Shown: positions 1,251 to 7,655, counted from the first letter of the stretch. The stretch: DNA of 31,582 nucleotides from Bacilli bacterium (GCA_017502465.1 JAFVUY010000119.1:1-31582), one strand, 5' to 3'. Notes: generated by a model from the sequence alone, not told the origin. Made by a program: numbers and translations.

Positions 1251-3165
1251 AAGAAAGGATGGCTTTTTAAATATGATTACTCAAGATAATTTAAGTACTC
1301 GTGATGGTTTATATGCGAGAGCCAATGGTGTTCTATTGAATTCTGCTGTTGAAATAACAGATGCTTATGGTAATACTGGTACTGTTAAATCATTGGCAGA
1401 AAAAAGAGGATTTAATATTGGTAGCACTGAGGAAGAAAAAAAGGCAACTCATATTGATAACATTAATACTTATTTTAAATATTTAGATATTTTAGCAGCT
1501 TATGAAAATGTAGAACTAGGTAAGCTTTCTTTAGGGCAAGAGGTAGATCCAATCTCTTTTAGCTATTGGGAAAAAACCGTTAATAATGATGGAGTTATTA
1601 CTGAGGTAATAAAGAATGGTGAAGAAGAATTTTAGCCTATTTTTACTATGCTTCCCGCAGATGAACCTCGTTTTAAAGTAAATTTAAACACTAGAAGAAT
1701 TGAAATTCCTTCTGGGTTTATTGGTCAATAGGTTCAAAATGATAATTATGCAGAAACTATTTGGTTTGAAGTTGATAGATATTTTGATGCTACAGATTTA
1801 TATGCAACAGATATTTCTATTCAATGGGAAAATGGGAGAGATAAGGGTGTAACTCAAGCTTTTAATCCTATGGCTAATTTAAATATTCATTAGATTTATG
1901 GAAAAATTGTTTTTGGTTGGCCTTTAACCTCTAATATTACCAAAAATAGTGGTAATGTAAGATTTACTATTCGTTTCTATAAAGAAAGTGAAAGTACTGG
2001 AGAATGTGTTTACAATTTAACTACATTACCAATGAATTTAAAAATTAATGATGGTTTAGTAATTGAAGGTATAATGCCCACAGATGCTCATAAAGGTTTT
2101 TATGATAATTTAAAAGTAAAATCTTTCTATACTATTGTTCCTGCTGCTATGCCAGCATTAGCAGAACTTATTGCGGATGGCAAGAGTACTTCTGTAAGAG
2201 AAGGAGATTTAGAAAATGGATAGTTAAATCTTTTAGCCAGAGGCGATTTTAATGCTAGTGATAATGGCGGAAAAGGTACTTTGTCCTATGAATGGATTCG
2301 CTATATTGAAGATTCTGATGGTGATATTATTTTAGATCCTAGTTTTAAAGGAGAGGGGGTTCCTTTCTCTCATAGCAATGGAAATGAATATAATAAATTT
2401 ACCGCCAATGCTGCAGGAGCTTATGGAGTAAAAATTAGAAATTATTACGGTGGAGATACAAAATATTTTATTCCTTCTTATTATAAATTAAGTAATGGAG
2501 TTTAGGTTTATAATAGTGAGGAATTGTTTAAGATTCCTTATGCTTCTACCCCTATTTTTAAGAATGTTAATGAAAATAATTTAGAAGTATCTGTTAATGA
2601 CACTAAAGTTATTTCTTTTACTTTAGATAATGAAAAAAATTCTACTTATCAATGGCAGTATAGTAGTGATAATAGCAACTATAATGACATTGATGGTGCA
2701 AATACAACAAGTTTAACTTTTAATAGAACTACAGGGTTTAATGAAGGCTGGTATAAACTTTATGCAACTAATAATAGAAATGATAATAGTAAGAGCGCTT
2801 TAAGTGATTAGGCTTATATTGTTACTTATCCAGCTTAGCCTTATATGATTCAAAGCTTTACTGTAAATAATAAAAATATTAATGCAGGAAATGGTGTTAC
2901 TCTTATTGAATGTGCTGAAAATGAAAGTACAAGCATTACACCAAATCTCTCTGCCAACCCAAATAATATAAAAAGTTTAACCAGTTATTCAATAAAATGG
3001 TATCGTAATGATGTAGAAGTTACTAATGTAAATGGAAATACTTTAATTATAGATGATAGTGAACAAAATGGTGATGAACAAGATGGTCAATACATTTGTA
3101 GAGTAACCACTGTTTATAATGGCAATGAAACTTCTGAAGACTTTATTGTTATGATATATTTTTAA
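1243..3165 (+). CDS. large virion/fibre-like protein with C-terminal Ig-like domains, about 640 codons read through 8 in-frame TAG
   Basis: ORF-track pieces 1243..1635, 2032..2223, 2281..2505, 2524..2811 and 2845..3165 are all in frame 1 and separated only by TAG (1633, 1729, 1891, 2221, 2503, 2809, 2836). There is no TAA/TGA until TAA at 3163-3165, which is followed by AAAAGGAG. The C-terminal segments look like Ig/I-set domains (WYRNDVEV...GQYICRVTT; GWYKLYATN). ATG at 1273 with GGA upstream is an alternative start. Confidence 0.6.
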
Positions 3166-3190
3166 TATTAAATAAAAGGAGTAATGTTTT

Positions 3191-4030
3191 ATGATAACTT
3201 CACATCATGATTATAAAGCATAGCTTTATTAGTTAAATAATCCAAATCATAAGTTACAAATAACAAAACTTCCTTTAGATGAACCTTTTTATAAAATAGA
3301 TTTAAACAAAAGAACTATTTAGACTCCTGAATTTTTAAGTGTAAATTTAGACCATAATGCAGAAACAGTATTTTTTGAAGTAAATCGTTATTTTGATAAT
3401 ATTGATTTAGCGGATATGACTTGTATAATTAGTTTTACAAATGCAAATCCAAATAAAAAAGAAAATGGTTTTATTTACGCTCCACCTTTTTTAGATATTG
3501 TTACTAACCCAGGGAAAATTATTATTCCCTGGGTTATTGAAGGTCCTGCAACTTTATACCCAGGTATAATAACTTTTGCTATTCAATTTTATCATTTATC
3601 AAAAACATATAATGGAAAGACTGTTGAACAATATGAATAGTTTTATGGAGAAGGTAATCTTCCAGAATATATACGAGTAGGATAGGTTAGTCAAGACACC
3701 TTTAATTCTAAGTATCATTATTTAAGAAATGAAAAATCTGAATGTTATTATGATTCAGTTTATAATGAAGACAATATTTACTATGTAAGAAAATCTTAGG
3801 AAGAAATTAATGCTCTTGAAATTGGATATTATTATGATTATAATTTAAATACTTTACCTGTAAAAAGTAAAATTTTACATGGTATGGATGAAATTCGTAA
3901 TTTAGATAATACAAATTATAACTATGAAGTTGATACTTTGAAGGAAATTTGGGATGCCATCAACGAGATAAGAAATAGTTATGAAGATAAAAATATTTTG
4001 TATTGGATCATCCCAGAAGATGAAGAATAA
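3191..4030 (+). CDS. hypothetical fibre-associated protein (279 codons, 6 in-frame TAG), N-terminal domain paralogous to residues encoded at 1636-2031
   Basis: AAAAGGAG RBS, then ATG at 3191 (the first ATG at 3184 hits TGA at once). Frame is open to TAA TAA at 4028-4033 apart from TAGs. The segment DEPFYKIDLNKRTI-TAG-TPEFLSVNLDHNAETVFFEVNRYFDNIDL mirrors DEPRFKVNLNTRRIEIPSGFIGQ-TAG-VQNDNYAETIWFEVDRYFDATDL in the upstream gene. ORF-track 3416..3640 is a fragment. Confidence 0.5.
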
Positions 4031-4046
4031 TAAATGAGGTATTAGT

Positions 4047-4436
4047 ATGGAATGGCTTGATTTATTAAATGACATTTTTAGACTTTGTATTGTTCCTCTT
4101 TTGGCTGTTTTAACTACTTATCTAGTTAACTACATTAAAGCCAAAAGTAATGAACTTGTACAAGGCAATGAAAGTATGCTTGAAGCAAAATATATGACTA
4201 TGCTTGCGGAAACAATTACTGATTGCGTGCTTGCCACAAATCAAACTTATGTTGAAGCATTAAAAGATAAGAATGCTTTTGATGAAGAGGCATAGAAAGA
4301 AGCTTTCAGACAAACATATGAAGCAGTTCTCGCTGTATTAAGCGATGACGCAAAAGAATATTTAACTAATGCTTATGGAGATTTAACTATTTATTTAACT
4401 CAAAAAATTGAAGCAGAAGTTAATATTAATAAATGA
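4047..4436 (+). CDS. holin, Holin_LLH-like (N-terminal TM helix then charged helical tail), 1 in-frame TAG
   Basis: RBS TGAGGT precedes the ATG. N-terminal hydrophobic helix IFRLCIVPLLAVLTTYLV. The pattern QTYVEALKDKNAFDEEA-TAG-KEAFRQTYEAVLAVLSDDAKEYL...IEAEV resembles Lactobacillus phage LL-H-type holins. Ends at TGA 4434-4436 followed by a perfect terminator. Confidence 0.55.
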
Positions 4437-4446
4437 TAAAACAAAA

Positions 4447-4495
4447 ATGGGAGACACCTATATTTTTAGGTGTCTCCCATTTTTTTATTTTGCCC
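4447..4495 (+). terminator. rho-independent terminator (gggagacacc / ggtgtctccc stem, then T7)
   Basis: A 10-bp perfect inverted repeat with a 9-nt loop, followed by ttttttt. Confidence 0.75.
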
Positions 4496-4605: not shown

Positions 4606-5007
4606 ATGTATAATCAACAAATGCCATATGGCTATTATCCGCAACCACAAAACTCTTATAGTCGTCAGCCCGCATCTACATCCTCTCAGATGATGCTAAA
4701 AGGACGTCCAGTATCATCAGTAGATGAAGTTAGAGCGACTGTAGTAGATTTTGATGGTTCAGTATTTTATTTTCCTGATATCGCAAACAAAAGAATCTAT
4801 ACAAAGTAGATTGGTTTAGATGGTTCTGCTATTTTATGTATGTATGAATTAAAAGAACTTCCTCCGGCAGAAACACCAATGATACCATCTAATTTTGTAA
4901 CAAGAGAAGAATTTGAAAGCGTTATTAATCAACTTAGGCAGGTAATGATGGCTCCACCTCAACCGGAACCTGTTCAAGAAAAACCTGCTCTAAATTTAAA
5001 TTTCTAA
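4606..5007 (+). CDS. hypothetical protein with Q/P/Y-rich N-terminus and conserved C-terminal domain (133 codons, 1 TAG)
   Basis: ORF 4606..4809 continues in frame past TAG (4807-4809) to TAA at 5005-5007. The N-terminus MYNQQMPYGYYPQPQNSYSRQP is Gln/Pro/Tyr-rich, and the layout is loosely reminiscent of spore-coat GerQ. Followed by AAAAAGGAGG. Confidence 0.4.
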
Positions 5008-5025
5008 AAAAGGAGGCAAAAATAT

Positions 5026-5268
5026 ATGATGCAAGTAAATCCTATGCAATTAATCTAGGCGATTAAAAGCGGACAGAACCCTCAGCAATTAATGCTAAGT
5101 ATTTTAGAAGGTCAAATGTCCAACACTCCCATGGGAGCAAATTTGTTAAATCTAGCAAGAAATGGAAATAGTAGAGAGATAGAACAAATTGCTCGCAATA
5201 TCTCTAAATAGCGAGGCATTGATTTTGATAAAGAATTTGCCGCCTTTCGTCAATAGTTGGGGGTTTGA
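5026..5268 (+). CDS. hypothetical small Gln-rich protein (80 codons, 3 in-frame TAG)
   Basis: AAAAAGGAGG RBS, then ATGATG at 5026. Frame is open to TGA at 5266-5268 apart from TAGs. Confidence 0.4.
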
Positions 5269-5290
5269 TAATTATTGGAGGTAAAAAATT

Positions 5291-6118
5291 ATGTTTAACA
5301 ATTCTAATGGCTATTCTTTATCTGATATCGCCGCAGTCACTGGCAACCGTTCTGGAGGAAATGGTTGGGGAGATGGCGACGGCTGGTGGATTATCCTGCT
5401 CTTCCTCTTTGCTCTTGGTGGATGGGGAAATTATGGCAACGGCTTTGGTGGCGGCGGTGGTTCTACTACTCGTGAAGAAATTGCTTACGGATTTGACATG
5501 AACGGCCTATCCAATGGCGTTCGTGGAATCCAATAGGGCTTATGTGATGGTTTCTATGCTATGAATACTGGTATGCTGAATGGCTTCGCAGGTGTTCAAA
5601 GTACATTATGCCAAGGCTTCTCTGGTGTAAATACTGCTATTTCTGACTTAGGTTATTCAACTGCAAATGCTATTAATGCTAGCACCGTAGCAGATATGTA
5701 GAACACTAATGTTATTACTGGTCAGTTAGCTGCAATGGCTGCTGATAATGCTGCTTGTTGCTGCGAAACTCAGCGTGCTATTGAACGTGGCTTCGCTGAT
5801 ACTAATTATAATCTGGCAACCCAGTCTTGCGATACTCGTCGTGCGATTGCCGATAGTACTCGCGATATTATTGATAGCAACAATGCTGGTGTTCGTTCTA
5901 TCCTAGACTTCTTAACTCAGGATAAGATTGCTTCTCTGCAAGCAGAAAACCAGACTTTAAAATTTGCTGCTTCTCAGCAAGCACAAAATAGTTACTTAGT
6001 AAGTCAGTTGCGCGAACCTTGCCCAATTCCTGCTTACTTTGTTCCAAATCCCAACTGCTGCTATGATGCCAGAGTGGTATATGGCAACAGTTGCTGCGGA
6101 AGTAATTATAACTTCTAA
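5291..6118 (+). CDS. Gly-rich, single-pass membrane, Cys-rich protein (275 codons, 2 in-frame TAG)
   Basis: ORFs 5291..5536 and 5735..6118 share a frame and are bridged only by TAGs. A GGAGG RBS is present. Gly-rich segments flank a hydrophobic helix (WWIILLFLFALGGW). The C-terminus is Cys-rich (AACCCE, NCCYDARVVYGNSCCGSNYNF). Confidence 0.5.
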
Positions 6119-6143
6119 TTGATGTAATGGAGGTTCATAAGAT

Positions 6144-6563
6144 ATGGAAATTACTGCTAATGCTTTATAGACAGTTAATGAAAATCAAAATGTACTATTT
6201 ACCGACACAGTTATTTGCGGAAGTTGCTCCATGATGCACAGAGACGGCAGTGGTCTGATTACTGTAAAAGGTATTACAGACCAGTGCCGCGCACGCTTCA
6301 AAGTAACCTTCGGCGGCAATATTGCCATTCCCGCAGGTGGCACCGTAGAAGCGATTTCACTTGCTATCTCATTAGATGGTGAGGCTATTGGAACAACTAC
6401 AATGATTGTAACTCCTGCCGCAGTAGAAGAATTTTGGAACGTATTCAGTGCTATCTTTATTGAAATTCCACGCGGTTGTTGCGCTTCTGTTGGAGTTCGT
6501 AATATCAGCACTCAGCCAATAGATGTTCAAAATGCTAATTTGATTGTAGAACGAGTAGCATAA
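6144..6563 (+). CDS. BclA C-terminal-domain-like (C1q/TNF-like jelly-roll) protein, 139 codons, 1 TAG
   Basis: GGAGGT RBS, then ATG at 6144. TAG at codon 9, then the ORF-track 6231..6563 segment. The C-terminus ...NANLIVERVA and the beta-rich, G/T/A/I-rich pattern closely resemble the C-terminal domain of Bacillus exosporium BclA (...SASIIIEKVA). Confidence 0.5.
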
Positions 6564-6576
6564 GGAGGTTTAAAGT

Positions 6577-7314
6577 ATGAGTAAAGATATGATTAAATCA
6601 ATGAAACAAACCTTAATGTGTTGCGCTCAAGGTCAAATGGGACATCTTGAAAGCGTTGATGCTAAGGAACTTGGCGAAGTAATTGATATGATTAAAGACC
6701 TTGAAGAAGCAATGTATTATTGTGTAATCGTTGAAGCGATGGAAAAAGGTGAGCAAGAAGGATAGTCTCGTTACTACCACGATCCTTATATGTATAAAGA
6801 TTGGGATCATGGTCGTATGTTCTATCCTATGAGTATCAATTATTATAGTGAAAGTGGTAAATATAATCCAGAATAGGGTGATATGAAACATTACTTCACT
6901 GAAAACGAAATGAGATATAATAATGGAACTATGTATAATGATGGAACCATGTACAGCAGAGGCCGTATGTATGCTTCCGGTGGAAATGGAGGCTCTGGCG
7001 GCGGCAGTGGTGGCAGTGGAAATGGCAATGGCTCTTCTGGAAGTCGTTATTTTCACGAATACGAAATGCCATATGATATGATGATGCGTGACCATCGTGA
7101 AGGTCAAAGCCCTATGAGTCGCCGCAGATATATGGAAGCCAAAGAAATGAAGCAGGATAAAAATACTCAATTACAGGAATTAGAAAAATATATGAAAGAA
7201 CTTTCTCATGATGTAGTTGAAATGATTGAAGATGCTTCTGCGGAAGAAAAGAAATACTTGGCAAACAAGATTTCTGCTTTGGCAACCAAGGTATCTAAAT
7301 TAGAAAATGATTAA
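6577..7314 (+). CDS. low-complexity protein (M/Y-rich repeats, GGNGGSGGGSGGSGNGNG tract, C-terminal coiled coil), 245 codons, 2 TAG
   Basis: AAGGAGG RBS. ORFs 6577..6765 and 6883..7314 share a frame and are bridged by TAG at 6763 and 6874. Repeats NGTMYNDGTMYSRGRMYASG. Ends at TAA 7312-7314, overlapping the next ATG. Confidence 0.45.
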
Positions 7315-7621
7315 TATCAATGGTGAAGATTGGAGAATCCTTTTGGCTTCTCCTCTTCATCCTTTATTATGTATGCCTAATGGCGACTATGCGATAGGGG
7401 CTTGCGATGACCCGTCAAAAACAATAGTTATAAATGAAGAACTTAATAACTATTATAGAAAAAAAGTGTTATGCCACGAATTAACTCATGCCGCAATGTT
7501 TAGTTATAATGTAGATTTAACATATGACCAAGAAGAGTTGGTAGCTGACTTGGTCGCAACATATGGGCAAGAAATAATTGGCATGACTAATTTAATATTC
7601 AAAAGATTAAAAGATAAATAA
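7307..7621 (+). CDS. small HExxH zinc-metallopeptidase-like protein (ImmA/IrrE-like fold suspected)
   Basis: 104 aa with the motif KTIVINEELNNYYRKKVLCHELTHAAMF. Translationally coupled to the upstream gene (ATGATTAA overlap). Ends at TAA 7619-7621. Confidence 0.5.
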   Translation: MININGEDWRILLASPLHPLLCMPNGDYAIGACDDPSKTIVINEELNNYYRKKVLCHELTHAAMFSYNVDLTYDQEELVADLVATYGQEIIGMTNLIFKRLKDK

Positions 7622-7655
7622 AAAATCGGGAAAGTATAATACTTTCCCGATTAAA
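7622..7655. terminator. bidirectional rho-independent terminator between convergent gene blocks
   Basis: Hairpin atcgggaaagtat-aat-actttcccgat with A-run upstream and T-rich sequence downstream. It sits between the + gene ending at 7621 and the - gene ending at 7658. Confidence 0.7.

Follow-up and report, generated by a model that had tools for sequence, protein, structure and literature searches.

Does a group of phage genes whose products have the composition of spore-coat proteins act on spores, or does it build something else? The question arises from a window of 31,582 nucleotides assigned to a Bacilli bacterium (GCA_017502465.1, JAFVUY010000119.1:1-31582), which is the whole stretch of DNA that we analysed. 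An earlier note, made from its sequence alone, had described five co-directional genes with low-complexity products downstream of a holin terminator, and had proposed that they encode either decoration or fibre-tip proteins of the virion or proteins that modify the spores of the host. The gene set and the terminator behind the holin are real, and the coordinates and sequences of the genes are correct; left out had been the in-frame TAG codons, a sixth gene (F) and the terminator that closes the cassette (Table 1). We tentatively regard the region from 4606 to 7621 as a late transcription unit of a TAG-to-Gln gut phage, an accessory cassette that may make a disulfide-knotted stalk-and-knob surface structure, and we hold this reading as possible rather than probable.

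Table 1. Features of the cassette and its immediate surroundings, in positions of the window.
Feature	Position	Strand	Length	Remarks
Holin (context)	4047..4436	+		phrog_13712 'holin', E 1.3e-29; N-terminal TM and long helical domain; 1 in-frame TAG
Bidirectional intrinsic-terminator-like hairpin	4443..4484	.		18-pair stem, 7 G-C pairs, T-run; between holin and cassette
Gene A	4606..5007	+	133 aa	TAG at 4807 read as Q; Q/P/Y-rich N-terminus
Gene B	5026..5268	+	80 aa	3 in-frame TAG; 14% Q
Gene C	5291..6118	+	275 aa	TAG at 5534 and 5699; phrog_16490, E 1.2e-40
Gene D	6144..6563	+	139 aa	TAG at 6168 (codon 9); predicted stand-alone C1q/TNF-like (BclA_C-like) jelly roll
Gene E	6577..7314	+	245 aa	TAG at 6763 and 6874; G/Y/M/S/N/R-rich low-complexity middle
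Gene F	7307..7621	+	104 aa	no TAG; small HExxH (HELTH) metallopeptidase-like; overlaps the end of E by 8 nt
Bidirectional terminator-like hairpin	7624..7652	.		13-pair stem; closes the cassette and parts it from convergent minus-strand genes

Layout and genetic code of the cassette

The six genes, A to F, all lie in the same direction directly after the holin gene, with terminator-like hairpins at both ends of the group. The holin gene is directly 5' of the cassette in the window-type relatives too, and F is the last gene of their cassettes. The order A-B-C-D-E is fixed in every D-bearing locus with enough flanking sequence among the 33 genome loci with D that were fetched, all of which are MAG contigs. 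There are two flavours of the cassette, each with a gene for a peptidase-like protein, which is F in the window type and a papain-like protein in the other.

When read with the bacterial code, all five genes from A to E are interrupted by in-frame stops, exclusively TAG and one to three per gene, while the terminal stops are TAA in A, C, D and E and TGA in B. Public gene callers give products of 133, 80, 275, 139 and 245 aa on near-identical contigs, and in L041, a standard-code relative, the open reading frames of the entire cassette are unbroken. The TAG at codon 9 of D corresponds to Q in all three relatives compared and to a nearly invariant Q in 80 diverse members of the family; the TAG of A and the first TAG of C also align with Q in relatives. 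Reading TAG as Gln is therefore justified. The density of TAG in the cassette genes equals that of the tail-fibre genes and the holin gene (7-37 per 1000 codons), and TAG is absent from the genes of PolIII alpha, NrdG, Gmk, DHFR and ThyA. TAG codons at the Gln positions of standard-code homologues, together with their enrichment in late genes and absence from core replication genes, place this phage with the TAG-to-Gln phages of the genetic code 15 type; it is unlike them in that no suppressor tRNA(CUA) was found, since ARAGORN detected no tRNA in the window or in nine related loci. The gene for such a tRNA may be located elsewhere in the phage genome, and a near-identical protein is present on contigs of up to 70.8 kb.

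Because TAG occurs in the cassette at the density of structural genes, full-length A to E require the recoded state, that is, active lytic infection and not a quiescent lysogen or a sporulating cell. The cassette also shares its strand, as well as its TAG density, with the tail-fibre genes and the holin, as would be expected of late genes. Such genes in recoded phages are invisible to standard-code annotation.

Products of the cassette and the predicted fold of D

The earlier note had likened the C-terminal region of D to the C-terminal domain of BclA, and structure prediction bears this out: the model shows D to be a stand-alone C1q/TNF jelly roll, a compact beta-sandwich that can be superimposed on the BclA domain and that most resembles the exosporium domains of BclA and ExsFA. 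The closest solved structures are the exosporium proteins F-BclA, BclA and ExsFA/BxpB. The closest structural matches overall are three stand-alone proteins of uncultured gut phages in BFVD (A0A8S5U2A1, A0A8S5S925 and A0A8S5SGY1; TM 0.78-0.87, 130-142 aa, up to 32% identity), which probably belong to the same family as D or to sister families; two of them are machine-annotated as 'BclA protein', a label only, and no function, context analysis or cassette description of these relatives was found in the literature searched. The proposed likeness of the last strand was verified in the PDB chains 2r6q and 1wck, D ending in NANLIVERVA and BclA in SASIIIEKVA.

The D protein of the window does not match the Pfam family BclA_C (PF18573) at E <= 0.1, and four of the 80 diverse relatives do, the best of which (P0350) reaches E 7.3e-07 over nearly the whole model and, with 29.6 bits against a cut-off of 38, stays below the threshold. 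An hhalign comparison of D with the verified BclA domain was not significant (probability 3%), phmmer of D against the PDB sequences gave nothing relevant, and a profile of the 80 relatives had F-BclA as its top match there, at E 0.3. D is similar in size to the BclA domain (PF18573, C1q/TNF, found also in F-BclA of the F-ENA spore appendage), with 139 against about 134 residues. In contrast to BclA, D lacks the N-terminal exosporium-targeting leader, has neither repeats nor a collagen-like (GXX)n stalk, is encoded in a phage late cassette that occurs also in phages of non-sporulating hosts, and possesses a GCC doublet that is invariant among its close relatives, the consensus in the diverse set, and absent from the BclA domain sequence. 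Nor does D have the DUF3992 jelly roll with an N-terminal Cys connector that marks the subunits of endospore appendages (Ena).

The stand-alone TNF-like protein ExsFA/BxpB forms trimers and fastens BclA and F-Anchor to the basal layer of the exosporium. There, it works with the Cys-rich, self-assembling ExsY/CotY and binds N-terminal peptides of its partners (PMC12357932). D is predicted to have the same stand-alone TNF-like fold, and the pairing of a TNF-like with a Cys-rich protein recurs in the cassette. However, phmmer and the profile search of PDB sequences revealed no sequence homology between D and ExsFA/BxpB, the gene of D lies in a phage late cassette, also in a Butyrivibrio phage, and not in the sporulation regulon of a spore former, C is unrelated to ExsY/CotY (no Pfam match), and no partner in the cassette carries an exosporium leader.

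TNF-like knobs are also found in phages (the tail fibres of cyanophages A4 and A-1(L), the Sf6 needle knob and PRD1 P5), where they form the C-terminal ends of long fibre proteins whose genes belong to tail or vertex modules, whereas D is a separate protein encoded after the holin. This bears on the possibility that the cassette simply encodes ordinary tail-fibre or receptor-binding parts, with D as the distal knob and C, A and E as fibre or assembly proteins. Fibre-like genes at 1273-4030 do precede the cassette on the same strand. Nevertheless, holin and terminator come before the cassette, which places it outside the tail module, and in none of 683 family representatives was D joined to a fibre shaft; the best 150 of these measure 61-196 aa, those at the long end being chimeras with either A or the papain-like protein. 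Moreover, the same cassette is present in phages labelled as siphoviruses, myoviruses and podoviruses, with unrelated tail genes, and distant carriers still share 55-60% identity in D, a good conservation that contrasts with the hypervariability of receptor-binding tips. We thus consider the tail-fibre explanation very unlikely.

C is, as had been noted, a Gly-rich and Cys-rich protein with a single transmembrane segment and CC doublets. It has 18 Gly in its first 60 residues, a hydrophobic segment at residues 32-42 (WWIILLFLFAL) and 11 Cys, among them a CCC triplet and two CC doublets; its C-terminal tail is Cys-rich (CPIPAY..NPNCC..SCCG). In the alignment of the family the Gly-flanked hydrophobic segment and the CCC triplet are invariant, and the PxPAY..CC tail is a consensus. 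An AF2 model, made on the 99%-identical P0121, consists almost entirely of two long helices (72-132 and 139-240) at low confidence (pLDDT 51.8), too poor for a fold search, so that the oligomeric state of C is a guess. BLASTP identified relatives in Dulem virus 33 (1.7e-40), Bacteroides phage C3_41T2LP (4e-20), crAss-like cr116_1 (3e-18) and Butyrivibrio phage Ceridwen (3e-11), while no Pfam or NCBIfam family was matched at E <= 0.1. The families of C and D comprise at least 8000 and at least about 8,000 clusters at 90% identity, respectively; neither has a Pfam domain or a name beyond 'hypothetical protein', and their PHROG families, including phrog_16490 of C, have no assigned function. Such numbers speak of very common gut-phage biology that is uncharacterised.

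The remaining proteins agree in composition with the earlier description. A has 6 Q, 5 Y and 4 P in residues 1-30, followed by a small beta-rich core (GRPVSS..DFDGS..IYTKQ) and a C-terminal helix; its proposed resemblance to GerQ is one of composition, as no GerQ or other Pfam or NCBIfam family was matched at E <= 0.1 (the GerQ models are Pfam Spore_GerQ and NCBIfam spore_gerQ). A matches phrog_21718 at E 0.0017, the syntenic 122-aa protein of Ceridwen matches it at 1.1e-29, and homologues of A occupy the same position in related loci. B is indeed rich in Q and has no match in Pfam, NCBIfam or PHROG; tblastn found its homologues in the same position, with 56% identity in L041 and 32% in the Clostridium perfringens phage XP41-N3. 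In E, the reported GGNGGSGGGSGGSGNGNG tract falls within residues 61-175, a part with 20 G, 16 Y, 12 M and 12 S, and in our reading of the sequence the flanks on both sides appear helical. Homologues of E are always 3' of D (36-69% identity in relatives), and no informative Pfam or NCBIfam family was found for it; a weak PHROG match to the XhlA 'hemolysin' and another to a tape-measure protein were rejected as artefacts of coiled coil or low complexity. F matches Pfam Peptidase_M78 (E 9e-06; 25.9 bits, cut-off 22), DUF6782 (2.4e-05) and phrog_1233 (1.2e-14). Signal peptides and hydrophobic segments are lacking in A, B, D and E, so an extracytoplasmic partner is within their reach only after lysis.

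Carriers of the cassette and the spore-surface reading

Among the phages of Clostridia and Bacilli in gut and rumen the cassette is very common, and it shows no specificity for spore formers. The hosts of most carriers appear to be Firmicutes, and many of the carrier contigs have been assigned to Clostridia families with spore-forming members; a few contigs sit in implausible bins (Alistipes, Akkermansia and Methanobrevibacter), may be mis-binned phage contigs and were not used to judge host range. A-B-C is present in cultured C. perfringens phages, and the full cassette is found in Ceridwen, a phage of Butyrivibrio fibrisolvens, which is a non-sporulating bacterium. C is present in about 20 crAss-like genomes, in a Bacteroides uniformis phage and in two viruses assigned to Methanomassiliicoccales. 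What follows C does not always appear to be a homologue of D: the C. perfringens phages have a different Cys-rich protein of 125 aa there, and the crAss-like and Bacteroides phages a protein of 128-180 aa, of which cr116_136 scored about 10 bits with the D profile and C3_180 did not match it. A specific pairing of C with D thus appears not to be universal. An Ena-like identity of the 125-aa protein was considered and dropped, as it has no Pfam match.

These carriers bear on the proposal that the phage encodes coat or exosporium proteins that are built into the spores of its host and alter their surface. The Cys-rich, Gly/Tyr-rich and Q-rich compositions are reminiscent of coat proteins, as had been claimed, and the structural neighbours of D and the Clostridia carriers, among them the C. 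perfringens phages, point in the same direction. The identity of A, B, C and E as spore proteins was not supported: none of them matches a Pfam or NCBIfam spore family at E <= 0.1 (GerQ, CotY/ExsY/CotZ or TIGR03720), D has no such match above threshold, and the exosporium leader TIGR03720 is absent from A to F in the NCBIfam scan. Sporulation-type regulation is not evident, and the in-frame TAGs bind expression to the recoded lytic programme. Homologues in non-sporulating hosts, which the earlier note had named among the findings that would speak against its proposal, do exist: the full cassette in Ceridwen, and C in viruses of Bacteroidota and archaea. As phages of non-sporulating hosts carry it as well, the cassette is probably not a spore-coat module, and proteins that modify host spores are the most improbable of the explanations considered here. 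Spore-coat-like composition in phage genes is accordingly no evidence of a spore-related function.

Genomic neighbourhood and a possible surface structure

Lysis genes adjoin the cassette or C in the window, its close relatives, Ceridwen, Dulem virus 33 and the crAss-like cr116_1, cr1_1 and cr4_1. An endolysin precedes the cassette in Ceridwen and Dulem virus 33; in cr1_1 two genes lie between holin and C and three between C and endolysin, cr4_1 has endolysin, holin, one gene and C, and cr116_1 has holin, carboxypeptidase, four small genes and C. The arrangement might point to a module for lysis or egress, in which C would act at the cytoplasmic membrane with the holin, as a second lesion, a timing factor or an envelope-disruption factor, the soluble proteins would be its regulators or partners, and the fold of D would be incidental to any surface display. 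In favour of it, C is located beside or within lysis modules across phyla and resembles in its plan (N-terminal transmembrane segment and long helices) the holin of the window itself, the membrane is the only envelope layer common to Firmicute, Bacteroidota and archaeal hosts, and no endolysin was recognised beside the holin in the window or in the Pfam matches of relatives within 10 kb upstream. However, C shows no likeness to any holin, spanin or lysin family in Pfam, NCBIfam or PHROG, a strong terminator parts the holin from the cassette, and the cassette lies about 3.5 kb 3' of the lysis genes in the C. perfringens phages and among recombination genes in Bacteroides phage C3_41T2LP. An i-spanin would combine an N-terminal transmembrane segment with a periplasmic coiled coil and pair with a lipoprotein of the outer membrane; C has a transmembrane segment and, in its low-confidence model, long helices, no lipobox partner is evident among the cassette sequences, and the Firmicutes that most carriers appear to infect have no outer membrane. 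We know of no role in lysis for a jelly-roll knob or for Cys-knotted tails. We therefore judge a lysis module to be unlikely.

Another explanation is a moron that converts the host surface or excludes superinfection, with C and its partners placed on or within the cell envelope during infection or lysogeny, where they would block secondary infection or alter adhesion. The temperate Dulem virus 33 and the archaeal virus vir215 have the cassette or C between lysis or tail genes and the integrase, the classical position of morons; the cassette is bracketed by its own terminators, its G+C content (0.40-0.41) exceeds that of the flanking late genes (0.25-0.33), and C is, as its sequence suggests, membrane-anchored. 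Against this, the late-gene density of TAG means that a standard-code host would make no full-length product before the recoding switch, several carriers appear virulent (the phage of the window, the crAss-like phages and Ceridwen), and PADLOC gave no match in the cassette. No integrase was seen in the phage of the window, which has its own PolIII alpha and NrdDG. This leaves the moron explanation quite unlikely.

The stalk-and-knob reading starts from the BclA/ExsFA-like D, which is always beside a Cys-knotted, putatively coiled-coil protein, by lysis genes. D would form the knob, trimerising as other C1q/TNF domains do, and C may oligomerise, if its model is correct, into a long coiled-coil stalk that is held by the N-terminal hydrophobic segment. 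After lysis has released the chains of C and D from the reducing cytoplasm, their conserved CC and CCC motifs could hold them together through inter-chain disulfides. A, B and E, as proteins of low complexity, might act as linkers, matrix or assembly partners, and the small peptidase (F, or the papain-like protein in the other type of cassette) might process A, B or E. The product would be a BclA-like surface structure of stalk and head, made in trans and put on virions or on the envelope of the lysing cell. To our knowledge, a hydrophobic membrane anchor is unusual in a virion decoration protein, which counts against this reading, as does the apparently non-universal pairing of C with D; the position beside the lysis genes may also reflect no more than a tolerance of the late operon for insertions at its end. 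There are precedents: in gut crassviruses, disulfides between subunits stabilise the virion and short N-terminal peptides dock the head fibres (PMC10172136), and trimers of ExsF bind their partner proteins by the N-terminal leader peptides of the latter (PMC12357932).

More speculatively, and with a correspondingly small probability, gut phages of at least three host lineages (Clostridia/Bacilli, Bacteroidota and Methanomassiliicoccales) might share a late module that self-assembles into an exosporium-like cross-linked layer, or nap, around virions or lysis debris, in which coiled-coil stalk, C1q/BclA-like head and low-complexity matrix proteins would be covalently cross-linked. If true, this would be a viral counterpart of spore-surface architecture, which could protect particles or aid adhesion in the gut.

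The literature searched on the cassette, on BclA-like proteins of phages and on the proteomes of carrier phages yielded nothing relevant, and public records hold no names for the cassette proteins. The predicted fold of D extends the BclA_C fold beyond spores and raises the question of a shared ancestry of exosporium and phage proteins. Cultured carriers exist in Butyrivibrio phage Ceridwen, the C. perfringens phages CPD1 and XP41-N3, and Bacteroides phage C3_41T2LP.

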